From an uncultured bacterium (GTDB taxonomy: Bacteria > Abyssobacteria > SURF-5), in assembly GCA_964607485.1 (NCBI GenBank), contig CAZSKP010000027.1:1-48039 (forward strand): DNA of 48,039 bases. The letters run 5' to 3'. The notes below the pieces were generated by a model. That model saw only the letters and a program-made list of their open reading frames with translations. It made no database searches and was not told the DNA's origin. Within the stretch, counting starts at the first letter, position 1. Each line of letters begins with the position of its first letter. A program made the translations under genes and the position numbers. Shown here in pieces: positions 14,303 through 36,278 of the stretch.

Positions 14303-14467
14303 GATTGAATCTCCGTTGCAGAATCACTTTTTGAATATTCTTATATCGACCCGACCATTACCGTTCGCCCCTATGGCGCCACCCGTAGAGAATGTCGCCT
14401 CGTTCCGAACGTCATCGCGCGAATTCTCATTATTCATCCTCCTCCCGGCTGGCTGAAACGTGAAGTC

Positions 14468-15682: not shown

Positions 15683-15803
15683 GCTCCGCCTCCAGCCACT
15701 ATTGATGTGTTGCAAGAAGGACACCCGAACGACGGATGGACGGTCTTTCCTTTTGCCGCTCTCCTGACGCGTCGGCCGGCGTGTGCCATGAGTGAAACGA
15801 CGC

Positions 15804-16475
15804 TCAGACGAGCAGCACGGCGATGATGCTGGAGAAGAATATCCCGTCGAATGTGCCTGCGCCTCCGATGGAGACGAAGGGAGACCCAAGCGAGCTGATT
15901 TTCCCCAGGTTGAGAATATCCGCGCCGAGCAGTGTCCCGACACTCCCGGCTATGTATGCTATCCGGGGAGCCTCTTTGCGCATCAAGATAAGGGCGGACA
16001 TGGCTGCCGCTATGGGCGGAATGAAGGTCGGAATCGCGATTCCAACCCCTCGTATGGGTGTGGCGAAATGGTAGGACACCGCGGTCACGATGGCTACTGC
16101 TGTGAGCGCCCTCAAGGGACGCGAAATCTTGAGCAGGAGGTACAGCGAGACGACCACTGGTATGATTGCGCCGCCAAGATTCACCGCGACAATTGTTTCC
16201 TTCGTCGTCGCCCATGCGGGGACGACGATTTGCATCCCGAAGTAATGAACCGGTTCTTCGAGGGTTATCGTTTCGCCTGGAATCCTTGCGACCGGGATGT
16301 TTATCGCGCTTCCAAAGAATGACAGGAAGAGTATGATGAACACGTAACGATGGTCTATCCCCACTTTCTCGAGCGCATAGCCGATGACCTTGATTTCGAT
16401 CATCACGAAAAGGAATACCAATAGCAGGAAGAAGAATACGCCGTATTTCGCCAGAAAGGGAAAAAAGTGATACAT
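15804..16475 (-). CDS. DUF1614-like membrane protein
   Basis: GSAINIPV, AVNLGGAIIP, GTLLGADILNL, SIGGAGTFDGIF; hydrophobic. Confidence 0.8.
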   Translation of the reverse strand: MYHFFPFLAKYGVFFFLLLVFLFVMIEIKVIGYALEKVGIDHRYVFIILFLSFFGSAINIPVARIPGETITLEEPVHYFGMQIVVPAWATTKETIVAVNLGGAIIPVVVSLYLLLKISRPLRALTAVAIVTAVSYHFATPIRGVGIAIPTFIPPIAAAMSALILMRKEAPRIAYIAGSVGTLLGADILNLGKISSLGSPFVSIGGAGTFDGIFFSSIIAVLLV

Positions 16476-16711: not shown

Positions 16712-17557
16712 TCATGCTAAACCGTTCAGATTCCTTATTTTCCGATAGTTTTCACGCACATCTTCTGCACGCGTTATATGTCCGAAGTCCCTTTCAATAT
16801 AATAGGTCGCAAGGCTGCAGTCAAGCACATATGGCACGTGCTTCTCCGTGTATCGCAAGATCAGTTCCCAGTCCACCAACGCCGTCAGCTCTTCATTGAA
16901 TCCCCCGAACTCCTCAAACAGGAGGCTTCGATGCATGAACACATTCATGTCGATATAGTTTTTCATTAAGAGGCGTTTTCTGTCATATTCCTTCAATCTT
17001 ATGTAATCTCTTTTTCCGACGTTGTCTATCACCCTCACTCCGCAATACATGGTGTTCACGTTCGGGTTATCAACGAACGTATTCACCATGAGGAGAAGAT
17101 AATTATCGGCCCATACATTGTCGGAGTCGAGATAGGCTATGAGTGAGCCGGTCGAGTGTTCGAGCCCGACATTCCTCGCGTGGCTCACGCCCGTGTGTCT
17201 GCTTTTTATGTACCGGACTCTTCCATCTTGTTCATAGTTTGACTTCACTAGATCTTCTGTGCTATCAGTGCTTCCGTCGTCGGACACGATAAGCTCAAGA
17301 TTTCCGTAAAGCTGTCCCAGGGCCGAATCGATCGCTCTCCCGATAACGAAAGCCCTGTTCCAGGTCGGCATTATCACCGAGACTTTCGTGTCCTGCGGCC
17401 TTTTTTCATACCTCTGGGTGAGTCTCAGCTCGTTTATCTTGAGCCTGAAGGCGTCGCCGGCGATGAGAGATTCAAGCTCATCGGCCCGCCCAGGCGCTTT
17501 GGCTTGGGCGGATTCAGCTGTCCGTTGAGGCGCAGTGTGGTCGTGCATGATTCTCAT
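16712..17557 (-). CDS. Glycosyltransferase family 2
   Basis: VSVIMPTWNR, VSDDGSTD, ARNVGL, AYLDSD. Confidence 0.92.
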   Translation of the reverse strand: MRIMHDHTAPQRTAESAQAKAPGRADELESLIAGDAFRLKINELRLTQRYEKRPQDTKVSVIMPTWNRAFVIGRAIDSALGQLYGNLELIVSDDGSTDSTEDLVKSNYEQDGRVRYIKSRHTGVSHARNVGLEHSTGSLIAYLDSDNVWADNYLLLMVNTFVDNPNVNTMYCGVRVIDNVGKRDYIRLKEYDRKRLLMKNYIDMNVFMHRSLLFEEFGGFNEELTALVDWELILRYTEKHVPYVLDCSLATYYIERDFGHITRAEDVRENYRKIRNLNGLA

Positions 17558-18543
17558 TTTCTCCCCACGACGAGTTGGGAGCCGTCGATGGGGATTCGGT
17601 GAACATCTCTGAAGCCCGACTGTTCCAGCAGGCTTTTCACTTCCGCATATGAATAGGAACGGCCGCTCGGAGTCCCCACGAGCATGTTCACTCCAAAGAT
17701 GGCCGCAGAAGCGGGCTTCGTCCTCGATTCATCGAGTATCGAATCCCGGATGACCACCCGGCCGCCATCCGTGAGAGACTTGTGCACTTTCCGGAGCAAA
17801 AGAGAATTCTGCTCTTCTCCACAGATGCAGATGATAGAAGAAAGGAACACCAAGTCGTACTCGCCGCCCAGTTCGTCCGCGAGAAAGTCTCCCTTCCTCA
17901 GGGTGACGCGGCCATCCAGGTTCTCTTTCTCGATTTCTTCTCCCGCTATCTTCAGGGCGCGGTCGTCCTTGTCGAATATGACCGCCTCCATGCCGGGATA
18001 GCGCCGGACAAACGCCAGCGCGTACGAGCCGGGACCGCCGCCAAGGTCCAGCATGCGACGAACACCCGCGCAGTTCAGAACTCTTGCCACTTTGTCGGCG
18101 CCGAATCGCGCCCGCTGTTTCATAGCGAGGGCCAGATTCTCGCTCTTTTGACCCGTCCACTCTCCTCCGCGGGGCAGGCCTGTTCTCACCGTTTCCGTTA
18201 GATGAGACCAGCGGTCCCAGAGGTGGACATTGTGGCTTAATCCGCCGCCCTCGTAGTCCGGCGTGCCCGGCATCAGAAAGCCTGCAAGCTCCTTGACGTT
18301 TGCAAACAGTTCGCCCTTCTTTTTCAGAAGCTCCATCCCGACGAGCGCATTGAGCAATATCTCGGTGGCTCTCTCGTCAGTCTGCATTTTCTTCGCAAGG
18401 TGCGACGCGCTCAGCTCGTCGTTGCCCAGTTGACCGAAGACATCGAGCTCGAGAGCCGTCAGGAAAATGCGAGAAGGCATATAGCCCCTGGCCAGGGCGA
18501 TCAGGCGCGGCAGGTGTCCATGGTGAGAAGCAGATTCACTCAT
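17554..18543 (-). CDS. SAM-dependent O-methyltransferase with N-terminal dimerisation domain
   Basis: LDLGGGPG, KGDFL, YDLVFLS; winged-helix N-terminus; start at MSESAS (18543). Confidence 0.9.
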   Translation of the reverse strand: MSESASHHGHLPRLIALARGYMPSRIFLTALELDVFGQLGNDELSASHLAKKMQTDERATEILLNALVGMELLKKKGELFANVKELAGFLMPGTPDYEGGGLSHNVHLWDRWSHLTETVRTGLPRGGEWTGQKSENLALAMKQRARFGADKVARVLNCAGVRRMLDLGGGPGSYALAFVRRYPGMEAVIFDKDDRALKIAGEEIEKENLDGRVTLRKGDFLADELGGEYDLVFLSSIICICGEEQNSLLLRKVHKSLTDGGRVVIRDSILDESRTKPASAAIFGVNMLVGTPSGRSYSYAEVKSLLEQSGFRDVHRIPIDGSQLVVGRK

Positions 18544-18581
18544 CCGGTCGGGCCTTCTTCTCAGGCGCGTGCGAGAGAGGG

Positions 18582-19397
18582 TCAGTACTGAATCAAAGAC
18601 CCATCCATCTTCGCCTTCTTCACCGCAAACTTGAACATCGAGAGACTTATCGGCAGCATCACGATTGAGAAGACTAATAGAGGAATTATGCTCGGCATCA
18701 GGCCGGCCATCGTGTAGCCCTTGAGCAGAGCCAACCTCATGCCTTCGAGAGCATATGTAATCGGCAACAGATACGAGATTTTTTGCAGCCACCCCGGCAG
18801 GACCGCGACCGGATAGAATACCCCACCCAACAGCCAGGACACATTGCTGAACACCCAGGTCAGAGGGTCGCCTTTCTTCAGAACCATGATGAAGCTGGCA
18901 GAGACGATGCCCAGGCTGCTGAACGATATGATGGTAAGGAGCAGGATGACCAGAGCGCCGATATAATTGGCATCGGTTATTCTCAGGCCGAAAAACAGCG
19001 CGCCCAACAGCAGAAACACGATGACTCTCACGGAAGTTATGAGAAAGCTGTACAGGGACGATGAGATGATGATGGTAGGAATCCGCGTCTGGGTGACGAG
19101 CAGGGCCTCAAGCGTGCCCAACACCTGCGCTTCCGAGATACACCTTGAAAAGCTGCCCAATGAAACCCGAAGGTAGCTGGCGAAGGCGATGCCTATCAAA
19201 ACGAAAGAGAAATAATCTCCGCCGTAGGGTTTGAGGTACGGCGTGACGGCGCTTCCGAAAAGCTTCGACAGAAAGAAGAACGTCAACGAGGCGAAGAATA
19301 TTCCGAACCATTGCGCCAGGAATGCGAATTTATAGTTGGCGGAGTGGATGAAGTCCTTGTAGATAAACGCGAAAGGTTTCTTGAGCGCTAGAATCAT
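18582..19397 (-). CDS. ABC-2 type exporter permease
   Basis: Multiple hydrophobic segments, GTLEALLVT, GGVFYPVAVLP..LQ, LPITYALEGMR. Confidence 0.88.
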   Translation of the reverse strand: MILALKKPFAFIYKDFIHSANYKFAFLAQWFGIFFASLTFFFLSKLFGSAVTPYLKPYGGDYFSFVLIGIAFASYLRVSLGSFSRCISEAQVLGTLEALLVTQTRIPTIIISSSLYSFLITSVRVIVFLLLGALFFGLRITDANYIGALVILLLTIISFSSLGIVSASFIMVLKKGDPLTWVFSNVSWLLGGVFYPVAVLPGWLQKISYLLPITYALEGMRLALLKGYTMAGLMPSIIPLLVFSIVMLPISLSMFKFAVKKAKMDGSLIQY

Positions 19398-19401
19398 CGG
19401 T

Positions 19402-20406
19402 TCATTCAACCACCCTTGCAAATATTTGGTCAAGGGATTCTTCCAGCGGGTAGCAGGCTTCTATCTTGATTCCGGCCAGCACGATCCTCTCGATTATCTC
19501 TGATACGTTATCCTTCGATGAACTGATTTCGACCCTGACGGCCGATCCGTTGGCATCCGAAGATTCGGACGAGATTCTGTCGATCTTATCCGTGAAGTAA
19601 GAATTGGACAGTTCGCGCTTCAGATGTTCTAAGGGGCTCTTGAGCTTCAGGACATACCTGTCTTTCCCATTCAGGATTCGCCTGATTCCGTCCAGCGAAT
19701 CGCAGATTCTTATCCTTCCTCGATGCACGATGGCGATCCTGTCGCACAATTCCTGGGCCTCCTGCATGTTGTTCGTGGCCAGGACGACCGTTCGCCCCTC
19801 CTTGCCGACTATCTGCTCTTTGATAAATTTCCTCAGGTCGCGCGTGACTAGCGGGTCCAGCATTCTGGTCGGCTCGTCGAGAAAAAGAATCTGCGGATTG
19901 GTGAGCATGCCTCTTGCGACGGCCAGCTTCTGTTTCATCCCCGAAGAGTAATCCTTGAAGACCCTGTCGATGTCATCTTCCAGCCCGGTAAGCTCGACCA
20001 CCTCTTCTATCCTCCGCGCGGCCTGTCGGGCGGAAAGGTTGTTGAGCGTCGCAAAGAATTTGAGGTTCTGTCGGCCCGTGAGCCTCCAGTAGAAGCTCCT
20101 CTCTTCGCTTATCACATAGCCGATGTCTCTCCTAATTTCTTTACCATGATCGGCGACATTGTATCCATTGACGAAGGCGCTTCCCTCGTTGGGCAGCACG
20201 AGTGTGCAGAGAATCTTTATCAGCGTCGTTTTCCCCGCTCCGTTCGGACCCAACAGCCCGAAGAGCTCACCCCGTTCGACCTGGATGTTGATATCTTCGA
20301 GAACAGTGGTTTCCTTTCTTCTGAGCGGATGCATCAGAAGTTCGCGGTATCCCTTGATCCGGGGGAATCTTTTTGTGAGATTGATTGTTTCTATCGCGAG
20401 AGCCAC
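19402..20406 (-). CDS. ABC exporter ATP-binding protein
   Basis: GPNGAGKTT, YSSGMKQK, LFLDEPT. Confidence 0.93.
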   Translation of the reverse strand: MALAIETINLTKRFPRIKGYRELLMHPLRRKETTVLEDINIQVERGELFGLLGPNGAGKTTLIKILCTLVLPNEGSAFVNGYNVADHGKEIRRDIGYVISEERSFYWRLTGRQNLKFFATLNNLSARQAARRIEEVVELTGLEDDIDRVFKDYSSGMKQKLAVARGMLTNPQILFLDEPTRMLDPLVTRDLRKFIKEQIVGKEGRTVVLATNNMQEAQELCDRIAIVHRGRIRICDSLDGIRRILNGKDRYVLKLKSPLEHLKRELSNSYFTDKIDRISSESSDANGSAVRVEISSSKDNVSEIIERIVLAGIKIEACYPLEESLDQIFARVVE

Positions 20407-20430
20407 GTTCGTTCTCTTCCTAAGATCAGG

Positions 20431-21690
20431 TTAATCGGCGAAAATGACGCCGGCCCTTTGAGTGATTCTCCTTATCATCATTCCGCCGAGGCGAAACAGA
20501 AGTTTGAAAAGACGGTGAACGGGATAATAGAGAAAGGCCATCCTCGAAGCCAACTTCTTATCACTATTCCCGGTCAACCTCGCGGGCGGCAAAGAGAGCG
20601 ACTCCAGCAGGCACACCAACTTGTAGGAAAGACGGTCTTTGCTCAGAAGCTCACTGCACAGCCTCTTAACAAACCATTTGGGAAGAATCGGCGAAGATTC
20701 GTCTCCCGAAAGAATGCTGGATTTGATTACCCGCTTGAGCAGCTGGTCCTCGAACTTGCTCAAATTCGAGCCGCGCCTGAGGCTTTCCAAGACCTCTTTG
20801 TCTATGCGCGCGCCCATGACATCCGCCGCGAGGAACAAGGGGTAGTATATGAACCTTTCGAAGTTGCGCTCCTTCGCTTCCTCGACCACCCAATCCCAAT
20901 CGAGCGAATCGCCATTGTTTCCTATGACCTGGCAGATATCGGATAAATTCCTCACCCTCCCGACGAAGTCCCCGCCATAGGAAAGGTGCAGGCACAGATG
21001 TATCACGGAGTCCTCCGGAGACAAGACTTTTGTGTCAACGCCTCCAATGCTCGCGGCCCCAGCTCTTCTCCACAGTCCATCGGCGTCGATCCGAAACACG
21101 TTGTTGGGCCTGACGATGTTTCGGTGTATCTCCATGACCGTCCCGTTAGCCGGGTTACGATAGGGCGCCAGGTGGTGATGATTTTCTTTGTACCACTCCT
21201 TGGGCCGGCAGCCCTCGGAATGGACATAGCCCAACTTGAGCAGGGCCGCGTCTGCCCTGTCCAGGTCTTCCTCGCGAACCAGAAGGTCAACGTCGGCCAT
21301 TTCCCGGAGGGCGACGTTCTCCCAAACATGCTCTCCGAGCGCCGCCCCTTTGAGCAGTATCGCCTCAATTCCCGCATCCTCGAATGAGCGCAATACATTT
21401 CTCAACTCTTCATAACGGACGGCGTTTTGAAAGCCGACCCTGCGGTAGGTCAACTCGAACTCCCGCCACACATGAGGGGGAACGGCGGAGCTCATCCCGA
21501 TTTTCTTCAGATTATGAAACACGAGCGGCGCAACACAATTCTGCTGCGCGCCTGTCAGGACATCGTCCCAGTTCAATCGTCTTCCGACGATTTCGCCGAC
21601 TCGATGCGCGGCTTCTCTGTCGAGACCAGGACGAAGCAACGTGAGCAACAGCTTTTTCTCGCGCGAGGACGGCGACATGTTCCCTTTCAC
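20431..21690 (-). CDS. Nucleotidyltransferase family protein (type found in PqqD/lasso clusters)
   Basis: ILLKGAAL, REMADVDLLV, EIH, HLCLH motifs. Confidence 0.85.
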   Translation of the reverse strand: MKGNMSPSSREKKLLLTLLRPGLDREAAHRVGEIVGRRLNWDDVLTGAQQNCVAPLVFHNLKKIGMSSAVPPHVWREFELTYRRVGFQNAVRYEELRNVLRSFEDAGIEAILLKGAALGEHVWENVALREMADVDLLVREEDLDRADAALLKLGYVHSEGCRPKEWYKENHHHLAPYRNPANGTVMEIHRNIVRPNNVFRIDADGLWRRAGAASIGGVDTKVLSPEDSVIHLCLHLSYGGDFVGRVRNLSDICQVIGNNGDSLDWDWVVEEAKERNFERFIYYPLFLAADVMGARIDKEVLESLRRGSNLSKFEDQLLKRVIKSSILSGDESSPILPKWFVKRLCSELLSKDRLSYKLVCLLESLSLPPARLTGNSDKKLASRMAFLYYPVHRLFKLLFRLGGMMIRRITQRAGVIFAD

Positions 21691-21740
21691 AATACTGTCT
21701 GATTACGCTTCGGCGCGTATTCGCGCGGTTCCCATGTCTA

Positions 21741-22019
21741 TCATTGGATTGGCACAATCAATTTGAAGGCCAGCAGAGTCTCGATGAGATTTACTGAATC
21801 TTTTCGAGCTCGTTCTCGCTCGACATCGAATTCCTCGTGCATCTTTTCCGCGATTTCATCGACGGCGCACCCCTGCTTCAAGAAGCGCCATATCCTCAAC
21901 CCAGTGCTGTTCAGGCCGTAGGACAACTTCGTATCCAGACAGATGAGAGTCGCTTCATCATCCAACACTGTCTCGATAACCTCGGGATTCGGTTGAAACC
22001 TGCGCTCTTCCGGATTCAT
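21741..22019 (-). CDS. PqqD-family RiPP recognition element (RRE)
   Basis: LDDEATL...YGLNSTGLRIWRFL...EIAEKMHEEFDV...LIETL. Confidence 0.88.
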   Translation of the reverse strand: MNPEERRFQPNPEVIETVLDDEATLICLDTKLSYGLNSTGLRIWRFLKQGCAVDEIAEKMHEEFDVERERARKDSVNLIETLLAFKLIVPIQ

Positions 22020-22046
22020 TCTGTCGTCCTGCTTCGGCTTCTCGTT

Positions 22047-23087
22047 CTATTCTCCTTGCAACAGAGCAATGTCCTGCAAGGGCCCGCCGGGTTCGGCGGC
22101 GCGCAATTCGCCCGCCCACGGGCTTTCGGGAAATTCCGCCAGCCAATCGACCTTCTTGAAGTATTTCAGGCAATACCAGCAGGGGAAATAATCCAGCGCG
22201 CCAAAGTTCCCTTCGTCAAGGCGCCGGAGCTTATCCTTCTTAAACGCGGCCACCGCGTCGATCATGCGTTGATGGGCCTCGTGAAGAGTCATATCGTTTA
22301 GGCTGCCGATGATGTCCGTATCCTCCGTTCCGCCTTTATAGCTGTTCAGGTGACAGCAGAACCCGACCTCGCTCTTGGCAGTGACAAACAGTTGCTTCGT
22401 GGTCATGGGGGGACACAACGCCAGGGGTTTCGGATCATAATAGCCGACGCTGGGCGTGATCTTCATCCTGAAGATTTTCTTCAGGCGTGAGATGTGTTCG
22501 ATGACTTCCCTGAGGTCTCCGGGAGACAGAAGCATTTCCAGGTCGGCCGTTCGAGGCGTCGGCTGAAGGGGTATGAGGACAAGTTCCTCGGCTCCGAGTT
22601 TCGCCGCCAGCAGCGTTATCTCCTCCAACCGGCGAATGTTTCTCTTTGTGACGGTCGTCCGTATTCCGAATGGGATATTCTTGTACCTGCAAATGCTGAC
22701 CGCCTGAAGGACGCGTCGGTACGAGCCCTCCGTCCTGGTGAGGTCGTGAGCGTCCTCCGTGGCCCCGTCCAGACTGAAAAACACCCTCTTTATGACATCG
22801 GGAGAAGGCTTGACGTTTTGATACCAGTCGGCAAAATCCCATCCGTTGGTGATCATGGTGAAGGCCAGGCCGTTCTCAGCCAACGTTTGAACGATTTCCG
22901 GAAATCGGGGATGGATGGTGGGTTCGCCGCCGGTGAAATCGAAATGGGAACAGTTGTGCGCCTTTGCAAACGGAATGATCCGCTCGAGAGTATCCAGGGG
23001 AAGGTCGTCTCCGGAGCCATCCAGAAAACAGTGGGTGCACCGGAAGTTGCAACGAGTGGTAAGCTGAACGCTTATCGATATGGACAT
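22047..23087 (-). CDS. Radical SAM enzyme with Cys-rich C-terminal (twitch/SPASM-like) extension
   Basis: CNFRCTHC, TGGEP, ITNG, FSLDG; C-terminal CPP...FCC...CWYC. Confidence 0.9.
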   Translation of the reverse strand: MSISISVQLTTRCNFRCTHCFLDGSGDDLPLDTLERIIPFAKAHNCSHFDFTGGEPTIHPRFPEIVQTLAENGLAFTMITNGWDFADWYQNVKPSPDVIKRVFFSLDGATEDAHDLTRTEGSYRRVLQAVSICRYKNIPFGIRTTVTKRNIRRLEEITLLAAKLGAEELVLIPLQPTPRTADLEMLLSPGDLREVIEHISRLKKIFRMKITPSVGYYDPKPLALCPPMTTKQLFVTAKSEVGFCCHLNSYKGGTEDTDIIGSLNDMTLHEAHQRMIDAVAAFKKDKLRRLDEGNFGALDYFPCWYCLKYFKKVDWLAEFPESPWAGELRAAEPGGPLQDIALLQGE

Positions 23088-23112
23088 ATGATTCCGCCCG
23101 GCCTGACGCCCC

Positions 23113-23391
23113 TCAGGCGTCTACGAAGCTGAGTATCCCCAAATCTACAAAGGATTGGATGATGCCTTCCAAATCCTCCCGCACCTTGGCTCCGTCGGGG
23201 ACCGTGTAGGTGTCTTTCACACACTCCTCTATATCGTCGAGGCTGTGCGTGCCGTCGCACATGTTCCAGACGAATTCAGCCAAGTAATTGACGATATGCA
23301 CGGAGTCCTTCTCCGAATCATAGAGTACGGATTCGTCGCCCAACTGACGAGAGAGGACCCCATCCTTGCGAAGTGGCATTCTTGTTCCCAT
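23113..23391 (-). CDS. PqqD-family RiPP recognition element (RRE)
   Basis: LGDESVLYD...VHIVNYLAEFVWNMCDGTHSLDDI...Y. Confidence 0.9.
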   Translation of the reverse strand: MGTRMPLRKDGVLSRQLGDESVLYDSEKDSVHIVNYLAEFVWNMCDGTHSLDDIEECVKDTYTVPDGAKVREDLEGIIQSFVDLGILSFVDA

Positions 23392-23394
23392 CGC

Positions 23395-23979
23395 TTACTC
23401 CACTGTTCCTCTTTTCAACCCATACGCCCGTTTATCGAAGCATATCCTATGAACCCAGCAAATCTGCTTCCACAGGAGGTGGCCGATGCCGTATCCCCGG
23501 GGCAATACCCTGGACCTCAAGACAGAGACGGCGTTGAGCCCTTTCCAGAGAACGGAATCGGCGGAACGTTTTCGGGCGTTCACATATGAGCGAATCGACA
23601 GAATGTAGTTCACAGTTCGCCAGAAGACGGAATCCAGCCGAAACCGCCCCTCGGCTCCCCGAACCTCAATCACTTTTCCCAGTATCTCCCCGCGCGAGAC
23701 GGGCCGGTGAAGACGAGATTTGCGGTCTGCCTTCAGGAGGAACAGTTCTACTCCGTCTCTGCGTTCGATTCCGACCACGCGGTGGACACGGAATTTGCCG
23801 GGAGCCCCAAACACAACCACGTCGCCCATGCGGATGTCGCGGCTCCCATGCCTTATGACGAGGGTATCTCCTTCCCTTATCATTGGGGACATACAGTTTC
23901 CCGTTATCGTACAGGCGCTCTGTTCCTGCCTCTCGTTCCAGATGTCGAGAACGGTTTGAAAATGAACCTCAGAAATCAT
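23395..23979 (-). CDS. S24/S26-like peptidase (candidate leader peptidase), Cys at nucleophile position
   Basis: ITGNCMSPMIREGD, GDVVVF, VHRVV, KAD, ILGKV signal-peptidase boxes. Confidence 0.8.
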   Translation of the reverse strand: MISEVHFQTVLDIWNERQEQSACTITGNCMSPMIREGDTLVIRHGSRDIRMGDVVVFGAPGKFRVHRVVGIERRDGVELFLLKADRKSRLHRPVSRGEILGKVIEVRGAEGRFRLDSVFWRTVNYILSIRSYVNARKRSADSVLWKGLNAVSVLRSRVLPRGYGIGHLLWKQICWVHRICFDKRAYGLKRGTVE

Positions 23980-24008
23980 TTCGTATGTCCGTTCGTTCTT
24001 CCGGCCCC

Positions 24009-24959
24009 TCAGTCCACCAATTGAAGGATGAGGTCGGCTGTTTCCTCCGGGTCTCCCAGCACGAGGTTAAAGCATTGGGCTTCGTTGAACGTGGGGGTAA
24101 ATTCAAACAGCAGCGCAGCCGTATTCTCTATCGGACCGATGTAGGAGTTGAGCAGCTCGAACATGGCGTTGGAGCCCGAGACTCGTTCCAGCCTGGGCTT
24201 TTCTCCGAAGCCTCTCAAGAAAATTATGAAACGGGGCCTGCAACTGTGGGAAAGGGCTCCAGGAACGATGTCTTCGATGTCCACCATCCGCTCCGACACG
24301 GAAGTTTCCCCCGAAGCCTCTCCCGTATTCGCTCCCAGGCGCAAGCCCAGCAGTTCCTGCGACTCAGAGCGGATGTTCACCTTTCGAGGGAACGGCTCCA
24401 ATATGCCCCGCGCGAGGTCAAAGCATGCAACCTCATCGGAAAGGAACTTGCAGCCGCGCTCCACGAGCTTGAGCACCGACGTGGTTTTTCCCATGCCCGA
24501 GGTGGCCGAGAAAACGATACCCTTTTTCCGCCACGCCACAACGCCCGCGTGGACAAGGTGATAGTTCTTCGCCGCAAGTCCGATTGTCGTGAGCAACGAC
24601 GATTGAATCAGGATGAGCGGGTCGCAGAATCCGGACAGGCGTTCGGTAGAGGTGTGAAGGTCCTGACACGTAAAGCAACTGTAGCCGTCGACCTTTGATA
24701 ACTGGTAGAAATAGCGTTTATCATCGATGAGCAGCTCGTTCGACCCGGCGAGGTCGTCCATTATCTGCATTCCCGGCCAGGCGATGTTCTCCCATTTCAT
24801 CTGTCGGTGTGACGGCTCATCGTCGGAACCCAGATAAAAGCGGCGGTACATCGACCTGAGGTGGGCCAATATCTCTTCCGAGTTCGACCTGATTCCGATT
24901 TCCTCGTCCAGGAAACGATAGAAATCGACAGGCAGAAAATCTGTTCTCACACTGGTCAC
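24009..24959 (-). CDS. HPr-kinase-related P-loop kinase
   Basis: VHAGVV, SATSGMGKTT Walker A, FLSDE, PFPR. Confidence 0.85.
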   Translation of the reverse strand: MTSVRTDFLPVDFYRFLDEEIGIRSNSEEILAHLRSMYRRFYLGSDDEPSHRQMKWENIAWPGMQIMDDLAGSNELLIDDKRYFYQLSKVDGYSCFTCQDLHTSTERLSGFCDPLILIQSSLLTTIGLAAKNYHLVHAGVVAWRKKGIVFSATSGMGKTTSVLKLVERGCKFLSDEVACFDLARGILEPFPRKVNIRSESQELLGLRLGANTGEASGETSVSERMVDIEDIVPGALSHSCRPRFIIFLRGFGEKPRLERVSGSNAMFELLNSYIGPIENTAALLFEFTPTFNEAQCFNLVLGDPEETADLILQLVD

Positions 24960-25034
24960 CGTTTCCTCCGCTTCCTATTCAAAGCGGTGCCGGGAATGAC
25001 CGAGGCCGCTTCGAGGTCATCTCTTGGTGTGTGC

Positions 25035-26147
25035 TCAGGGATTCGCGATAGATGTCTCCTCAATACCTGCCTTCTCTTCTTCCTTCAGCGCGCGCCAACA
25101 GCCGGGGTCGGCCTTGAACGGGTCGCCCGTCAGCGCATAGGAGAGGCACTTGAGCCCTCCGCGGCACTGCCCGAAGAATGAGCACCGCTCGCAGCCCTCG
25201 CTGATGCGGTCTTTGTCTCGGAGGTCCCGAAACAGCCGGCTGTCGTTGTACAGTTCCACCAGGGGAGTTTCCATAACGTTTCCCACACGTATGGGCATGC
25301 GGCGGCATGGATAGAGGTCCCCGTTCGGTTGAACGGTCACGAGGGTGTTACCGGCGCCGCAATGGTAGGGTCTGCCTCCGCCCACGAGAAACTGGAGGGC
25401 GCGGCCCATGTGTATCTGAGTTCGGCAGAAGGAACGCGCCGCCTCGCCGTGCGCCTCATGCATGACCTCGAAGAACTCTCGCGTCTGTTCGGGCGAGAGC
25501 ATCCCGTCATTCAATTCGGAGCCGCTGCCCCACGGGATGAGTCGATCGGACCACACGCGGCTGACGCCCAACTCCCGGCCCAATCGGGCGACATCGGCGA
25601 ATTCGCGGAAGTTGGCTCTCTGCGCGGTGAAGGATATGGAGGTTCGGACGTTCGCGCTCACCAGGTGCTTCAGGGCGGAAACCGTCTGCTCGAAGGCGCC
25701 CGCGCCCCGGATCTCATCGTTCCGGGTCTTCGTGCCCTCGACGCTCACCTGCACAGAGGCAGCGCCAAGGCTGCGGAGCCGGCGAGCCATCTTCGCGTCG
25801 ATGAAGCTCCCGTTCGTGAGAATTCCGAAGCCAAACGATTCTCTCTTGGAGTGAAAGGCTTCGAGCAGGTCGAGAAAATCCGCTCGAATGAAGGGCTCAC
25901 CACCCGAAACGTTTATGTAGCCCGAAACCGGAAGCGGTGCCCGCGCGCGCCGCTGGTGCTCGAGTAATTCCTCGAACTGGTCCAGGACCGCGAGCAGATC
26001 CTCATAAGGGAGCTCTTCCCCCGAGTAGCTCTCCTGATAGCAATGAGTGCACCGGCGGTTGCATCGTTCGGTGATATGCCATTGGAGCACAAGCCGCGAG
26101 GGATGGTTCGGCTCAGCTCGAGCTCTCTCGGACGTGGTTGAGCGCAT
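25035..26147 (-). CDS. Radical SAM/SPASM domain peptide maturase
   Basis: CNRRCTHC, SGGEP; SPASM CGAG...GDLYPC...CERC-x5-CRGG-x2-C...DPGC. Confidence 0.93.
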   Translation of the reverse strand: MRSTTSERARAEPNHPSRLVLQWHITERCNRRCTHCYQESYSGEELPYEDLLAVLDQFEELLEHQRRARAPLPVSGYINVSGGEPFIRADFLDLLEAFHSKRESFGFGILTNGSFIDAKMARRLRSLGAASVQVSVEGTKTRNDEIRGAGAFEQTVSALKHLVSANVRTSISFTAQRANFREFADVARLGRELGVSRVWSDRLIPWGSGSELNDGMLSPEQTREFFEVMHEAHGEAARSFCRTQIHMGRALQFLVGGGRPYHCGAGNTLVTVQPNGDLYPCRRMPIRVGNVMETPLVELYNDSRLFRDLRDKDRISEGCERCSFFGQCRGGLKCLSYALTGDPFKADPGCWRALKEEEKAGIEETSIANP

Positions 26148-26165
26148 GCAAGCTATGCTATGGCG

Positions 26166-26309
26166 CTACGCCCCGCAGCCACAGCCGCCGTATGAGGCGT
26201 CGGCGCCGTGAGGCCTGATGGCGTCCTCAAGTTCTTCCTTGGAATACGTGGCCAGAACCGTGGGTTCCACGTAAAGTTGCTTTTCCCCATCTCTTCTTTC
26301 TTCTGCCAT
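26166..26309 (-). CDS. RiPP precursor peptide P1 (47 aa)
   Basis: MAEERRDGEKQLYVEPTVLATYSKEELEDAIRPHG-ADASYGGCGCGA; RBS GAGGAGGAG. Confidence 0.85.
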   Translation of the reverse strand: MAEERRDGEKQLYVEPTVLATYSKEELEDAIRPHGADASYGGCGCGA

Positions 26310-26421
26310 GAGTCTCCTCCTCTTTGCCGCCGCGCTGATGAAAACATCACCTCCCGGCGACAAGCCACCCGAACATCACTCGCGGTGAGCGGTGAACCCT
26401 CCAGGTGTTAGGTGACTAAGC

Positions 26422-26592
26422 CTAAGCCACCGGTGGGGGTATCCCGCAGCCGGGCCCGCAACCGCCGGTGTCATATGAGCTATCGGGACCGTGAGGCCTG
26501 ATGGTCTCCTCGAGTTTCTCCTTGGAATATGTGGCCAGAACAGCGGGTTCTACATAGGGCTGTTCTTCCCCACTCCTTCTTTCTTCTGCCAT
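26422..26592 (-). CDS. RiPP precursor peptide P2 (56 aa)
   Basis: MAEERRSGEEQPYVEPAVLATYSKEKLEETIRPHG-PDSSYDTGGCGPGCGIPPPVA. Confidence 0.85.
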   Translation of the reverse strand: MAEERRSGEEQPYVEPAVLATYSKEKLEETIRPHGPDSSYDTGGCGPGCGIPPPVA

Positions 26593-26718
26593 AGGTCCCC
26601 CCTTCTCTCTTGCTGCCTTGATGACGGTGACATCACACGGCGACAAGTCACGGTGCCATCGCTCGGGATGAGTAATAGGCCCCGTCGGTTTCAGCCGGTT
26701 ATGGCTGAGCGCTCGCTC

Positions 26719-26868
26719 CTACAGAATTGACCCGCAGCCACAGCCGCCGTATGAGGCGTCGGGACCGTGAGGCCTGATGGCGTCCTCAAGTTCTTCCTTG
26801 GAATATGTGGCCAGAACCGTGGGTTCCACGTAAAGTTGCTTTTCCCCATCTCTTCTTTCTTCTGTCAT
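26719..26868 (-). CDS. RiPP precursor peptide P3 (49 aa; not in ORF track)
   Basis: Translated by hand: MTEERRDGEKQLYVEPTVLATYSKEELEDAIRPHG-PDASYGGCGCGSIL; RBS AGGAGGAG. Confidence 0.85.
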   Translation of the reverse strand: MTEERRDGEKQLYVEPTVLATYSKEELEDAIRPHGPDASYGGCGCGSIL

Positions 26869-26994
26869 GACTCTCCTCCTGGGTCCTGCCGCGCTGATGA
26901 CAGTGTTACCCTGCGGCGACAGGCCGCCGTGCCATCACTCGAGGTGAGCGATTGACCCCATCGGTTTCAGCCGGTTATGGCTGAGAGCTTGCTC

Positions 26995-27177
26995 CTACAG
27001 AATTGGCCCGCAGCCGCCGTCGTTGCCGTCGGGCGTGCCGCAGAGCCCGCCGGTGCAGTACGTGTCCGCGGAACCATGAGGCCTGATGGTTTCCTCGAGC
27101 TCCTCCTTGGAATACGTGGCCAGAACTCTGGGTTCGACGTAGAGCTGCTTCCTCTCATGCCGTGCTTCCTCTCTCAT
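26995..27177 (-). CDS. RiPP precursor peptide P4 (60 aa)
   Basis: MREEARHERKQLYVEPRVLATYSKEELEETIRPHG-SADTYCTGGLCGTPDGNDGGCGPIL; RBS AAGGAGGAG. Confidence 0.85.
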   Translation of the reverse strand: MREEARHERKQLYVEPRVLATYSKEELEETIRPHGSADTYCTGGLCGTPDGNDGGCGPIL

Positions 27178-28111
27178 CAGCACTCCTCCTTTTTAGGAAA
27201 TGGTTGCCCTTGGGATCCCATTTGCTCCCATCCTTCAGTAGTTGGCGCTTCCAGATTCCTTTGAGGGCATGCAAATTCCCCTCTTTTGCGTTTCTGTGTA
27301 TTTCCGTCATCCTTTGCCTGGTGGCCGGGTCGTACAGGGGATACAGGCAGTCTATGTGCGACCCGCAGAATATATGGTCGTAGTGGTCCAGATGTTCGGG
27401 GGTAAAATGGGAAACTCTGTCCGAAAACGCGGCGTACAGGCTCGCACCCGTGTTGTACCTGTACCAAACGCCCCCCATCGCGCATGAGTATGGAAGGAAC
27501 GGCTGAAAATCAAAGTACCTGACCTTGAGTTTCCATATCTCATCCCGCAGTTTTCGAACATCCGGAATCCACATGAAGGATGTGTGCAATCGCGGCATCG
27601 TGTGGGTGTGCGTGATATTGTCGTTGAACCCGCCTATCAACTTGCCGGCGATCAATCCGTCGAATTCAAACTCCTCGCAACTGTCCCAAAGGCAGATGTC
27701 CGGGTCGAGAAACACGACGGGGCCTGCTGCAGTCGCGTCGGCGGCCATGCTGAAGATCGTGTTCTGGATAAACTCATGGTGCTTGACTCCGGGCTCCGGA
27801 ATCTGTTCAAAATGGCAATCGTTCCCTTTCGCCAATACCTCTACCTGGGCCCTGGCATCCGGAATGCTCGAGTTATCCACAACCACGATGTTCGCATTGG
27901 GAAAACCAACCCTCAGCGTTTTAAAGATCAGCTCGGTTCCGTAGAACAGTTCGAGGTTTTTGCAATATGTTAAGATAAAAACGGTCGCGACCTGTTTCGC
28001 CGCGTCACTTTTCCTTGAACAAACGAGGCGTTCCTTCAAGCCGTCTAGTCTTTTCGCGGCATCTCGGGTATTTTCGTTCTTCAACTTGAGCTCTTTGACG
28101 AAACTTCCCAC
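27155..28111 (-). CDS. Divergent GT-A fold (glycosyltransferase-like) protein, copy 1
   Basis: VFILTYC, IVVVDNSS, VFLDPD (DxD) motifs; GTG start after AGGAG; 3' end overlaps P4. Confidence 0.65.
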   Translation of the reverse strand: MGSFVKELKLKNENTRDAAKRLDGLKERLVCSRKSDAAKQVATVFILTYCKNLELFYGTELIFKTLRVGFPNANIVVVDNSSIPDARAQVEVLAKGNDCHFEQIPEPGVKHHEFIQNTIFSMAADATAAGPVVFLDPDICLWDSCEEFEFDGLIAGKLIGGFNDNITHTHTMPRLHTSFMWIPDVRKLRDEIWKLKVRYFDFQPFLPYSCAMGGVWYRYNTGASLYAAFSDRVSHFTPEHLDHYDHIFCGSHIDCLYPLYDPATRQRMTEIHRNAKEGNLHALKGIWKRQLLKDGSKWDPKGNHFLKRRSADERGSTA

Positions 28112-28176
28112 CCAGGCTCCTGTCTCAGACGATTGTCATCGCATTATCAGAAAAAACAATGAACCACCCGCAATGA

Positions 28177-28192
28177 TGCATTATCAATACCA
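28177..28192 (-). promoter_or_regulatory. Probable sigma54 promoter for GT-like copy 1 and the precursor/maturase operon
   Basis: Minus strand TGGTATTGATAATGCA (GG-N10-GC); IHF-like AT tract TAACTAATTGACA at ~28232-28244. Confidence 0.5.
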
Positions 28193-28479
28193 CACCGACG
28201 CGATTCTGCTATGGGAAGCGGTTGAAGTCTGTAACTAATTGACATTAAAATAGATAGGCTAGGAAAAAGATGCGGCTGGAGAGACAGGTGACTTATGATG
28301 GGGGGATCGGCAATGTTTTCTTTTCACATCATAGAGCGAAATATGTTGAGGAATTCCTTCATCAAAGGGCAGGTTGGGACTCCTCCAGAAGCAAACCCCC
28401 GAGGGAACAGTTGACGATTGAAAAGGAGGGAAGACGCCTTGTTATCGCGCGTCACGTCGAAGATGTTATGCTCTCCTAA

Positions 28480-28597
28480 GGAAAATCTGTCCCTATTCTG
28501 ATAAGCTCCTGCCCGTCATGCTTCTTCAGGCAGTTGCGCCTGGAACCACAAGAGACGGGCATAAGGAGAAAGAGTCATGGGGGTCTTCACGGGCAAA
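28480..28597 (+). repeat. Direct repeat copy A: SDR upstream region plus first 7 codons
   Basis: 118 bp, 7 mismatches versus 31381-31498 by manual alignment. Confidence 0.92.
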
Positions 28598-28728
28598 CCG
28601 GCCACCGCAGAATCGACCGGTCCGTGAGGTTGTATCGTTTGCTCCAGTTCCTCCTGTGAGCGTGTTGCCGCCACTTCGGGCGCGACACAAGGCTGTTCTT
28701 TCATGTACGCGGGGAGGCTCAGAACCAC
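28516..28728 (-). pseudogene. Degenerate precursor P6, core replaced by antisense of the duplicated SDR leader
   Basis: QPCVAPEVAATRSQEELEQTIQPHGPVDS matches the family leader; the ORF runs into repeat copy A from 28597. Confidence 0.7.
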
Positions 28729-28745
28729 CTCCCCTTCATCTCAGG

Positions 28746-28913
28746 TTATCCTGGAGGACATGCGCATCCGCATCCGCATCCGCACCCCTCTTCGCAGCCG
28801 TAGGTATCGGTCGTGCCGTGAGGTTTTATCGTCTCATCGAGTTCTTCTTTTGAGTATGTTGCCAGCACTCTGGGCTCCATATAGAGCTGCCTATCCATGT
28901 GCTCTTCACTCAT
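28746..28913 (-). CDS. RiPP precursor peptide P5 (55 aa; not in ORF track; alternative start 28922)
   Basis: Translated by hand: MSEEHMDRQLYMEPRVLATYSKEELDETIKPHG-TTDTYGCEEGCGCGCGCACPPG; RBS AAGGAGG. Confidence 0.85.
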   Translation of the reverse strand: MSEEHMDRQLYMEPRVLATYSKEELDETIKPHGTTDTYGCEEGCGCGCGCACPPG

Positions 28914-29868
28914 TGTTTGCATACACCTCCTTTCTCTGGGAGTTGTTTGTATTCTCTTCTTTTCGAGCTTTCGACATCTGGTGCTTCCAGATTCCCCTCA
29001 GGGCCTGCAAGTCTCCCAGCCTTGCGTTGTCATGTATTTCTCGCATCCTCTTCTCGGTTTCCTCATCATAATAGTTGCAGAGCAGGTCGAAATGGGAGCC
29101 GCAGAATATGTGGTCGTAGCAATCGAAATGTTCCGTTGTGAACGCCGAAAAACTGCCCGCAAGCACCGCGTAAAGCGCCGCCCCCGTGTTGTACCTGTAC
29201 CACTTTCCTTTCATTACCGTTGAATAGGAGAGAAACGGCTCAAAATCGTAGTGCTTTGCCTTGATCCTCCAAATGGCGCTTTGCAGCTTGCGGGCGCTCG
29301 GAATCCACATAAACGAGGTGTGAATCCGCGGCATCAAATATGTCTGCATTATCGGGTCTTCGTAGCCGCCTATGATCCTGCCGGCAATCAAACCGTCAAA
29401 ATCAAAATCTTCGCAATTCTCCCACAAGCATATATCCGGATCGAGGAATATCAGAGGATGCTCGGCCGCCCCGTTTTCAGCCACCGAGCATATTACGTTT
29501 TGGATGAATTGATGATGCACTATGCCCGGTGCAGGGATCTGTTCGAAGAGACAATCATTCTTCTTTGCCAGAGCCTCGATTTCGGGCCGGCTCTCCGGAA
29601 GGCTGGCGTTGTCCACGACAACGATGTTCGCGTTCGGGAAACCAACACGAAGAGTCTTGAAAACAAGTTCGGTTCCATAAAAAAGATTCAGATCTCTGCA
29701 ATATGTTAGTATAAAAACGGTTGGAACAGCTTTAGCGCTACGACCTTATCGTGCCGGCGCTCTGGCAGCTTCCAACCGATCCGCCAATCTCTGGCCAAAT
29801 AGCGTGTTTGTATTCTTCGCCCTGAGCCGCTCAATTACTTCTTGCAGTGTATCTTTTGGTTTCGCCAT
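28906..29868 (-). pseudogene. GT-A-like protein copy 2, interrupted by one in-frame TAA
   Basis: ATG 29868 MAKPKDTL...ARAPAR*GRSAKAVPTVFILTYCRDLNLFYGTEL... continues in frame into ORF 28906-29616; TAA at 29746-29748; clear paralog of 27155-28111. Confidence 0.85.
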
Positions 29869-29915
29869 CTCGGCCCAATTCTTCGACAAGAAACATTTGT
29901 ACCTCTTCAGTCATG

Positions 29916-29931
29916 GCAATATATATGCCAA
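29916..29931 (-). promoter_or_regulatory. sigma54 (-24/-12) promoter upstream of GT-like copy 2
   Basis: TTGGCATATATATTGC matches TGGCAY-N5-TTGC; 48 nt before ATG 29868; AT-rich tract upstream. Confidence 0.75.
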
Positions 29932-30126: not shown

Positions 30127-31290
30127 TCAAAAAGGGGAGTTGCCCTTGTTCTCGGTTCGTTCCTCTTCGTCACCTTTCGCATAGCATCTCAATGAATTTC
30201 GAAATACGTTGTCAAGGCACTGATTGCACGATATGCACTGCGCCTTCGCCAAGTCACCCGACGCCCACCTCTTGACCAGAGCAGGCTCCCGGATAAAGGG
30301 TCTCGACAGCGAGACAAAATCGGCTGCCCCCTCTTCAAGGATTTCCTCCATAACGCTAAGCGTCCTCATGCCGCCTACAAGGATGACCGGCACATTGACA
30401 GCTTCCTTTATGGCAAAGCCTGAGGTTCGAAAATATGCTTCTCCGCCATATTTGCCCGAGGGCTTGAGCAGCTGGCTTTCCAAACTCCCCAGGAAATACC
30501 GGCTCTCGGGCAATCCTCCTGTCACCTCAATGCAACTAATTCCTGACCCAACGATGATCTCTGCAATCCGAACTGCCTCATCTGTGTCCAGACCGCCAGG
30601 GATGAAATCATCACAGTTCATCTTGATCATGACGGGATAATTCTCATCGAGGAGTTCCCTCACTCGCTCAACGATTTCCGTGATAAATCTTGCCCGGTTT
30701 TCAGTGCTGCCCCCGTACTGGTCCGTTCGATTGTTAAGATAGGGCGAAATAAAGCTGCTGATCAAAAATCCATGGCCCCCGTGCAGTTGAACGGCGTCAA
30801 AACCCGATTCCATCACTCGACGGCAGGCCTGTGCAAAATCCTCAACAACGTGTCCTATTTCCTCAACCGACATTGTGCGAGCAACGACATCTCCGCGCTT
30901 ATCCTTAATATCAGATGAAGAGATGGGCGTGTCACCTCTCAGAACTGGATTGTCCCGACCGCCCGGATGAGTGATCTGCATAGCGATCTTTGCGCCGCAC
31001 TCATGCACTCTCTTGGTCACGCTCTTCCACGCACCGATCTCGTTGTCATCATCCATCGCGAAGGGAGTGGGCGCTCTTCCGGCCAAGCGGAAATTCTTAT
31101 GCCTTTTGACAAAAGCTCCGCCGGTAATGACGAGCCCCACACCTCCATTCGAGAGGTCTTCGTACAGTCTGCGAAGTTCGTCGCTCGGTCCCCAGTTCGA
31201 TGTCCCCATCCCTTCGTACGTGGCCGAACGCACAAACCTATTCTTGATTTCAAGCTTGTCGATCCACGCCGGCGTGAATAATATAGACAC
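30127..31290 (-). CDS. NADH:flavin oxidoreductase (Old Yellow Enzyme family)
   Basis: KNRFVRSAT, GFDAVQLHGGHGFL, NNRTDQYGGS.ENRAR, CISCNQC; GTG start after AAGGAG. Confidence 0.92.
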   Translation of the reverse strand: MSILFTPAWIDKLEIKNRFVRSATYEGMGTSNWGPSDELRRLYEDLSNGGVGLVITGGAFVKRHKNFRLAGRAPTPFAMDDDNEIGAWKSVTKRVHECGAKIAMQITHPGGRDNPVLRGDTPISSSDIKDKRGDVVARTMSVEEIGHVVEDFAQACRRVMESGFDAVQLHGGHGFLISSFISPYLNNRTDQYGGSTENRARFITEIVERVRELLDENYPVMIKMNCDDFIPGGLDTDEAVRIAEIIVGSGISCIEVTGGLPESRYFLGSLESQLLKPSGKYGGEAYFRTSGFAIKEAVNVPVILVGGMRTLSVMEEILEEGAADFVSLSRPFIREPALVKRWASGDLAKAQCISCNQCLDNVFRNSLRCYAKGDEEERTENKGNSPF

Positions 31291-31380
31291 TGAAATCTCC
31301 TTGTATATAATCAACTTCCATTTGAACCTTCTGAACCCACTAATTATAGAGTATTAACGACAGAAAGTTAATCCTCCGGT

Positions 31381-34257: not shown

Positions 34258-34434
34258 ATTGTCCTCCCAGCAACTCGTACAAGGTTGGAACTAGTTTACA
34301 TCAAAAGGCTTCGGTTGGCAAGTTTTCAGGACATCCCGCGCTCGTTGGGGCGTAATTGACGGTCGGGAGCGTGTCGGTTATAATAAGCTTCGTTTCTTGC
34401 CCCCTCCGCGCCGGAAGTGAATATTTGACTGCAG

Positions 34435-36210: not shown

Positions 36211-36278
36211 GAAAGACAGGGGGAAAAGGGAAAAAGGGGAAACCCGAAATTCGAGACCCTGAACCCTGAACCAATCAT

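Follow-up and report, generated by a model that had tools for sequence, protein, structure and literature searches.

The closest described relative of the gene cluster analyzed here is the linear polyphosphorylated peptide (LPP) system of Paenibacillus alginolyticus, encoded by lppA-K-B-S-D-N (Popov et al., 2026; PMC13381572). Its core set consists of an SpI-type peptidase, a discrete recognition element (RRE) of the kind found with ribosomally made and then posttranslationally modified peptides (RiPPs), an HprK kinase, and a nucleoside triphosphate (NTP) transferase. Leader binding, polyphosphorylation of Ser3, and RRE-dependent cleavage by a Ser/His/Asp enzyme have been demonstrated, the final product and its role are unknown, and the authors guessed at missing partner enzymes; radical S-adenosylmethionine (SAM) enzymes go unmentioned in the main text of that study and occur only as one column of 834 in its domain matrix (PMC13381572). 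Our cluster lies in a stretch of 48,039 nucleotides (the window), which forms the first 48 kb of contig C27 (CAZSKP010000027.1) in the 4.7 Mb genome of an uncultured bacterium of the Abyssobacteria (SURF-5; GCA_964607485.1). It runs from 29889 to 16712 and is on the minus strand throughout, so that strand applies to every cluster coordinate given below.

The locus is a real gene cluster of the RiPP type, with an uncharacterized precursor family found in uncultured sediment bacteria. It resembles LPP in the YxxPxVL motif of its leaders and in possessing an HprK-like kinase, a discrete RRE, a signal peptidase homologue of the archaeal/endoplasmic reticulum (ER) type, an NTP transferase, and an exporter. 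As in LPP, the kinase, peptidase, and RRE genes are adjacent and no lasso cyclase or B2 peptidase is found among the cluster genes, and all four gene types of the LPP core set are present. The interpretation that we favor, with reasonable confidence in the scheme as a whole, is that this is a RiPP cluster on an LPP-type chassis that carries plug-in tailoring modules, and its products would probably be heavily modified Gly-Cys-repeat peptides.

Five precursor genes are intact. P1 (28746..28913; 55 residues) has a strong ribosome-binding site, a (GC)n tract, and a Tyr at position +5, counted from the end of the leader. P2 (26995..27177; 60 residues), P3 (26719..26868; 49 residues), P4 (26422..26592; 56 residues), and P5 (26166..26309; 47 residues) are tandem duplicates spaced 276–309 bp apart. 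The leader pattern matched five times in the window and not at all in 100 shuffles. Among the five leaders, 18, 10, and 101 differences fall at codon positions 1, 2, and 3, respectively; because they lie mostly at third positions, the codon pattern fits purifying selection on the leaders. We found no further precursor copies elsewhere in the genome.

To describe the family, we used a profile built from seven precursors, against which 8000 candidates were scored with a threshold of E 0.01. The profile matched 206 proteins, and the residue counts given here come from the 120 that were listed. The leader reads YxxPxVLA[TS]Y..EEL...I[RK]PHG and is followed by a Gly-Cys-repeat core. Tyr or Phe at position 0, Pro at 3, Ser or Thr at 8, and Tyr at 9 occur in all 120 precursors, Leu at 14 in 119, and the Pro, His, and Gly at 20–22 in 119, 113, and 117. 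Beyond the PHG the sequence is variable and Gly-rich: GCG is present in 115 of the 120, Gly precedes 360 of the 385 core Cys residues, and 69 of the precursors have Tyr at +5; these are upper bounds, as the profile favors GCG cores. All five window precursors also carry a Ser or Thr four residues past the PHG, just before the Tyr. The conservation of the leader across the family, over variable cores, favors the RiPP scheme. None of the 96 members scanned matched an NCBIfam precursor model, the only matches being weak ones to unrelated families. Judged by these comparisons, the family is unnamed and without an NCBIfam precursor model, and we found no description of it in the open-access literature (subscription papers and preprint supplements lay outside the search).

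No in-frame TGA occurs in the window precursors, and selenocysteine read-through was rejected for the window. In one other lineage, a precursor has TGA at the Cys slot of a Gly-Cys repeat (G-TGA-G-C-G), seen at two related loci (loci are designated by L numbers: L031, 3232-3342, minus strand; L025, 26-136, minus strand). A GUGA-loop hairpin lies about 30 nt downstream of the TGA, which is either a selenocysteine codon or a nonsense change.

Nine further genomes of the same family were compared, and one has the complete cluster in the same order, with one glycosyltransferase-like (GT-like) gene, two precursors, and a third radical SAM gene at its end. A DNA pattern made from the leader alone retrieved 31 metagenome loci, which we annotated against the window proteins. 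When near-identical loci were counted once and both genomes were included, the order kinase, S26 protein, RRE1 was kept in each of the 10 loci of sufficient length to include the three genes, and the nucleotidyltransferase was present in all seven loci that reach that far. The leader travels with a constant core of kinase, signal-peptidase-like protein, RRE, and nucleotidyltransferase. The exporter (absent from L028/39 and L032), the methyltransferase, the GT2 glycosyltransferase, and both radical SAM enzymes are optional across the related loci. Records of named kinase homologues are labeled Poribacteria, Deltaproteobacteria, Desulfatiglandales, and Nitrospirota.

The precursor family is rare among the genomes searched: the profile found it in 2 of 61 and in 2 of 401 genomes (both counts include this genome), and in 0 of 13, 0 of 1, and 0 of 2 genomes of three small phyla chosen by dsrA. 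A scan of a genome collection with the first precursor alignment gave 45 pattern matches, one of which was confirmed; because that pattern was a narrow one, the spread of the family across genomes is under-sampled. No matches came from viral contigs. A branch of the family has Cys-less, Asn/Gly-rich precursors in arrays of up to five genes (L033, L036, L042-L044, L046, L049-L051, and L054) and, where the genes are visible, keeps the kinase, S26 protein, RRE1, and rSAM2 and lacks rSAM1. A different arrangement was seen at L056 and L057, on plasmids of Microbulbifer and Indioceanicola: a conserved cassette of an NTF2-family gene, a radical SAM gene, a PqqD gene, and two further radical SAM genes, which is possibly a RiPP system on two unrelated plasmids.

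Within the constant core, the kinase (24009..24959) gave weak model matches (PF07475, E 0.0025; TIGR04352, 59.8 bits), and its His, GKT Walker A motif, and SDE are kept in all 14 aligned rows. The S26 signal peptidase homologue (23395..23979) is of the SEC11/ER type, as is LppS. The catalytic Ser position is occupied by Cys in 7 of 10 homologues and by Ser in the other three; the window protein has Cys29, His66, and Asp85, possibly a cysteine triad. A 511-residue homologue in which kinase and S26 protein are fused (P0327) is in line with joint action of the two. RRE1 (23113..23391), a discrete PqqD-type protein that would bind the leader, has LppB (9x8z) as its best PDB match, a weak one (E 0.022). 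The nucleotidyltransferase (20431..21690) belongs to NTP_transf_5 and retains the LKG...DxD motif.

The first radical SAM enzyme, rSAM1 (25035..26147), has a SPASM domain and no RRE of its own. One point of reference for it is the SbtM/SbtA thio(seleno)oxazole system (TIGR04082; PMC9204691, PMC11002830), in which a Gly-Cys motif becomes 4 Da lighter through the action of SbtM, the thiol stays reactive, and the thiooxazole absorbs near 304 nm (PMC9204691). The two enzymes share a radical SAM/SPASM architecture with QWHIT before the CxxxCxxC motif, and their substrates share a Gly-Cys motif (GGUG there, GGCG here), which is present in the precursor cores at the frequency given above. rSAM1 lacks the N-terminal region of about 180 residues found in SbtM and is not its sister. 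Its scores against NCBIfam all lie under the cut-offs: 156.7 of 265 bits for MftC, 153 of 400 for ACGX, and 147.5 of 350 for SbtM. The MftC score, together with a precursor that gave no MftA model match, led us to reject mycofactocin as the parent system.

In an 18-row tree, rSAM1 formed a clade of its own (support 100/99) on the SbtM side of a split (100/97) from MftC and Ahb, and a grouping of rSAM1 with the MftC clade was rejected by the approximately unbiased (AU) test (p-AU 0.0013). The tree included a single true SbtM and lacked a true ACGX enzyme, because no further SbtM exceeded its cut-off in 27 genomes and no ACGX-type enzyme did so in 151. By this placement, rSAM1 is a subfamily in its own right, and its position on the side of SbtM makes it possible that thiooxazoles are formed at Gly-Cys. 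The one true SbtM is encoded by this same genome on another contig (G000:C69:7241-9210, L013; 693 bits against the cut-off of 350), behind its own short peptide, which has Ser-Cys repeats and lacks an in-frame TGA; in the nine other genomes of the family, no SbtM exceeds the cut-off.

The second radical SAM enzyme, rSAM2 (22047..23087), has no SPASM match in Pfam or NCBIfam and carries instead a conserved set of auxiliary Cys residues (C225, C244/245, C303, and C306). Of its best 36 matches, 12 carry a PqqD domain in fusion; therefore, RRE2 (21741..22019), a PqqD-type protein whose best solved match is TbiB1 (E 3e-8), is assigned as the partner of rSAM2. The best NCBIfam match of rSAM2 is ScmE, under the cut-off. 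A fold search returned only generic radical SAM neighbors (BlsE, CteB, and viperin, at 17–19% identity). With regard to spliceotides, which have an Xaa-Tyr-Gly motif and a PlpX-type radical SAM enzyme, 21 of 69 precursors have Gly directly after the core Tyr, and no PlpX-type model is among the top 25 matches of either radical SAM enzyme. More distant relatives of rSAM2 (P0405, P0431, and P0454, with 40–43% identity) bear the names of anammox bacteria (Kuenenia, Jettenia, and Scalindua). A third radical SAM gene ends the cluster at L009 (3299-4231, minus strand) and L053 (11589-12551, plus strand); the two products are 56% identical and have no homologue in this genome.

The presence of the tailoring enzymes follows the residues of the cores. 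Behind Cys-core precursors the next gene is rSAM1 in 12 of 16 loci (some of them cut by contig ends), fragments of rSAM1 in two, and the kinase in two; behind Cys-less precursors it is the kinase in 5 of 5 loci and rSAM1 in none. Similarly, a GT-like gene adjoins 12 of the 13 Cys-core loci in which that side is visible and is missing from the sole Cys-less locus whose upstream flank is long. rSAM2 stands behind RRE1 in 5 of 5 loci with Tyr in the adjacent cores and in 0 of 3 without Tyr (p 0.018).

A rival explanation is that the cluster makes a plain LPP-type linear phosphopeptide with an unoxidized backbone, the radical SAM enzymes and glycosyltransferases being passengers or having another target, such as a sugar or nucleotide that is added later. 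Both radical SAM enzymes are dispensable across loci, the best PDB matches of rSAM2 by sequence and by fold are the nucleoside-acting BlsE and viperin, and L035 and L045 keep (GC)n cores without rSAM1. However, rSAM2 is often fused to an RRE, rSAM1 is conserved at 57–76% identity directly behind the precursors, and the BlsE match is a generic one (18% identity, TM score 0.64). We regard this explanation as rather unlikely.

Under the scheme that we favor, an LPP-type chassis with tailoring modules, the pathway would begin with RRE1 attaching to the YxxPxVL leader on each of the five precursors and bringing the peptides to the enzymes, a step in which we have high confidence. The HprK-like kinase very likely phosphorylates the precursor; the Ser or Thr four residues past the PHG is our first choice of site, although its chances are a shade below even, and the alternatives are the invariant leader Ser/Thr and the PHG His. 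rSAM1 probably oxidizes Cys residues of the Gly-Cys tract. Thiooxazoles of the SbtM kind and thioether crosslinks are each a doubtful guess when taken singly, and equally so, which makes crosslinking one option of several. Thiooxazole formation is attractive because it would leave a reactive thiol as a handle for S-glycosylation or S-methylation. rSAM2 and RRE2 may modify the Tyr at +5, for example by linking it to the PHG His; on Tyr as the substrate we lean slightly to the negative. The phosphate or the Cys sulfur would be the target of the nucleotidyltransferase and glycosyltransferases, and a heteroatom that of the capping methyltransferase. The S26 protein, which has a somewhat better than even chance of being active, would use its Cys nucleophile to remove the leader, probably at or near the PHG, and the ABC-2 pump would export a small library of cores. 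A bolder version, which would make this a new RiPP class, is one in which rSAM1 converts each Gly-Cys of the (GC)n tract so that a metal-binding chain of adjacent thiooxazoles results, the sulfurs of this chain are glycosylated by the GT-A enzyme or methylated, rSAM2 installs a staple between the PHG His and the Tyr, the kinase and nucleotidyltransferase attach a phospho/nucleotidyl group, and an enzyme of signal-peptidase fold with Cys in place of Ser performs the cleavage; we consider it unlikely.

A number of observations weigh against this scheme. The nucleotidyltransferase LppN had no detectable activity in the LPP study (PMC13381572). A core Ser/Thr is never invariant: it is found at +4 in 59 of 120 precursors, and 8 of the 120 have no core Ser/Thr at all. 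The general base His of the S26 protein is present in just 6 of 10 homologues, the others having Asn (two), Lys (one), or Cys (one). SbtM, MftC, and Ahb are all equally distant from rSAM1, at about 30% identity, and an exclusive clade of rSAM1 with SbtM was rejected (p-AU 0.019). In four Cys-core loci, rSAM1 is lost or eroded (L027, L028/39, L035, and L045). The Tyr pattern weakens when L053 is included, which has a Tyr-bearing precursor about 1 kb upstream and no rSAM2 (p 0.11), and a contig-matching proxy, itself weak, found rSAM2 on 8 of the 16 contigs with Tyr and on 1 of the 6 without (p 0.33). In the kinase tree, the Cys-less loci are one clade (88/90) and the Tyr-less loci lie inside another single clade (100/98). 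As each set of loci falls in one clade, each pattern amounts to one joint loss of residue and enzyme, a single phylogenetic contrast that is suggestive and is not statistical proof.

The two GT-like proteins match nothing in Pfam or NCBIfam. Copy B (27155..28111), whose start codon is uncertain, has a DPD motif and a predicted GT-A fold (pLDDT 93; Foldseek E 8e-8; Z 11.6, with a root-mean-square deviation of 4.0 over 206 residues). It heads an unnamed family with 497 representatives, and its profile has no sequence match in the PDB and no PHROG match. Look-alikes in the Atlas are mostly phage proteins, and three relatives (P0186, P0230, and P0243) carry additional fused domains (phrog_21390 in both of those scanned). 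This is an unnamed family of predicted GT-A fold common to phages and RiPP clusters. Copy A (28906..29889; a 327-codon frame) is 60% identical to copy B and is interrupted by an in-frame TAA (29746-29748), at which the L037 homologue reads through with Gln. Copy A is probably a nonfunctional, broken duplicate of copy B. The stop is also found in contigs of run X1, a possible source of the assembly; contigs of three other runs reach it only at the end of one contig.

The remaining optional genes encode a DrrA-like ABC exporter ATPase (19402..20406), a DrrB-like ABC-2 permease (18582..19433), a Methyltransf_2-family methyltransferase (17554..18543, with 18543 probably the start), and a GT2 glycosyltransferase (16712..17557). 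The best PDB matches of the methyltransferase are RedM, an unnamed methyltransferase, and DsyB; it has a Cys, by eye, at what we take to be the position of the catalytic His in this family, and its acceptor atom may be N, O, or S. This gene content could also be read as a surface-glycan locus, in which unmodified Cys-rich peptides bind metal or act as anchors while a glycan or phospho-sugar is what the enzymes make. The three glycosyltransferase-type genes, the nucleotidyltransferase, and the ABC-2 pump are in keeping with such a role, and LPP clusters often sit in capsule loci (PMC13381572). The YxxP leader, the two RREs, the co-inherited block of kinase, peptidase, and RRE, and the existence of Cys-less precursors in the family argue against it, and we consider it highly improbable.

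The preliminary description of this stretch had reported a tightly packed, one-strand run of genes, and the order and shared direction given there hold: gaps range from -32 to 126 bp, except for 404 bp between copy B and the degenerate precursor. Pfam and NCBIfam also support the domains named for rSAM1 with its SPASM domain, the kinase (weakly), the S24/S26 protein, the two PqqD proteins, rSAM2, NTP_transf_5, the ABC ATPase and ABC-2 permease, Methyltransf_2, and GT2. Three of its details need qualification. Five of the six small peptides are intact; the sixth (28516..28704) is a degenerate copy that retains part of the leader (E 1e-19 against the family profile, which includes it) and in which the Tyr of YxxP, the leader Tyr, and every core Cys are gone. 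The GT-like genes gain support from the fold model, but one of the two is broken. The family of the proposed O-methyltransferase stands, but the "O-" is not established. The GC content of the cluster (49–62%) brackets the genome value of 57%, and promoter and terminator scans stayed at chance level.

The broken GT-like copy and the degenerate precursor could mean that the cluster is decaying and that its product is no longer made in this host, and in the same direction point the eroded genes at L027, L028/39, and L045 and the occurrence of the cluster in just one of nine other genomes of the family. However, both broken parts duplicate intact genes, the differences among the leaders are biased toward synonymous ones, all 12 remaining frames for enzymes, RREs, and transporters are open, and the motifs that were checked are intact. 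We give decay only a slim chance.

Genes for a creatininase-family protein, URO-D, and a DUF1614 protein lie downstream (13523-16475, minus strand), and a flavin oxidoreductase gene lies upstream (30127-31314, minus strand) and is common only to the same-family genome. Because the downstream genes are not at that place in related loci, we treated both flanks as outside the cluster. The window further contains a subtilase (S8) gene with a divergent ABC exporter gene pair 3–8 kb upstream of the cluster (32686-38090) and a DNA methylase fused to an Mrr-like nuclease domain (11805-13430, plus strand).

Among other known systems, the SynChlorMet and HPr-rel-A cassettes (TIGR04248-51, TIGR04352-53), whose definition consists solely of TIGRFAM models and whose gene content is suggested by the model names, combine two radical SAM enzymes, a PqqD protein, and a kinase-like gene toward a product that is unknown. 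Membership in one of these cassettes, with a Cys-crosslinked peptide as the product, would account for the same broad plan, for ScmE as the best match of rSAM2, and for the RRE1 score against TIGR04353 (29.2 against a cut-off of 35). However, all of the models fall under their cut-offs (ScmE 85 and 103 of 400, ScmF 65 and 80 of 400, ScmD 31 and 25 of 100, no ScmC at E 0.01, and 59.8 of 200 for the TIGR04352 kinase), none of the 96 precursors matches a precursor model, the precursor here is another one, and extra glycosyl- and methyltransferases are present. We find such membership quite improbable.

Phosphorylated lasso peptides, represented by paeninodin (PadeK) and pseudomycoidin (PsmK/PsmN), offer a different comparison (PMC9266682). 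They share an HprK-like kinase, a nucleotidyltransferase, a B1-type RRE, and a YxxP leader with our cluster and provide a precedent for hexose on phosphoserine; their kinases have two Asp residues, whereas the kinase here has SDE, and no C-terminal Ser is conserved in the precursors here. Neither a macrolactam cyclase nor a B2 peptidase was found among the 20 open reading frames of the cluster (the search for the two was confined to these frames).

The cluster would represent a new RiPP class if its radical SAM enzymes turn out to form poly-thiooxazoles or a His-Tyr link of a new kind, which we consider unlikely. It presents the LPP chassis together with partner enzymes in one operon, it extends LPP-like systems beyond the Bacillota to uncultured lineages, and its natural variants, in which single modules are lost, are ready-made deletion controls. 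It also offers a possible Cys-nucleophile signal peptidase homologue and three enzyme families (rSAM1, rSAM2, and the GT-A protein) for which no curated model reaches its cut-off, with short substrates that can be synthesized.

The preliminary description had recognized neither the leader/core family nor the enzyme combination as characterized and did not name LPP. The precursor family is indeed uncharacterized, and neither radical SAM enzyme reaches the cut-off of any NCBIfam family shown; the combination itself is better seen as an expanded version of a known chassis than as an unprecedented one, as its core set is the LPP set described in 2026. Compared with LPP, the leader has only YxxPxVL in common with YxxPxVLxHQxIxFETxxS, the remainder differing in all 120 listed precursors. 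The LPP triad of Ser29, His68, and Asp93 is matched by Cys29 and His66 with no Asp at the D93 spacing (LppS compared by eye), the MsbA-like exporter is replaced by a two-gene ABC-2/DrrAB pump, and the named matches here are not Bacillota, unlike LPP. Two radical SAM enzymes, a second RRE, a new GT-A family, a methyltransferase, and Gly-Cys-repeat cores are added. Because the leader, transporter, and catalytic-triad features of LPP are not shared, we describe the cluster as LPP-type at its core and do not file it as an LPP member. What appears to be new, on a chassis that was first described in 2026, is a precursor family that has no name, together with three enzyme families that are unassigned.

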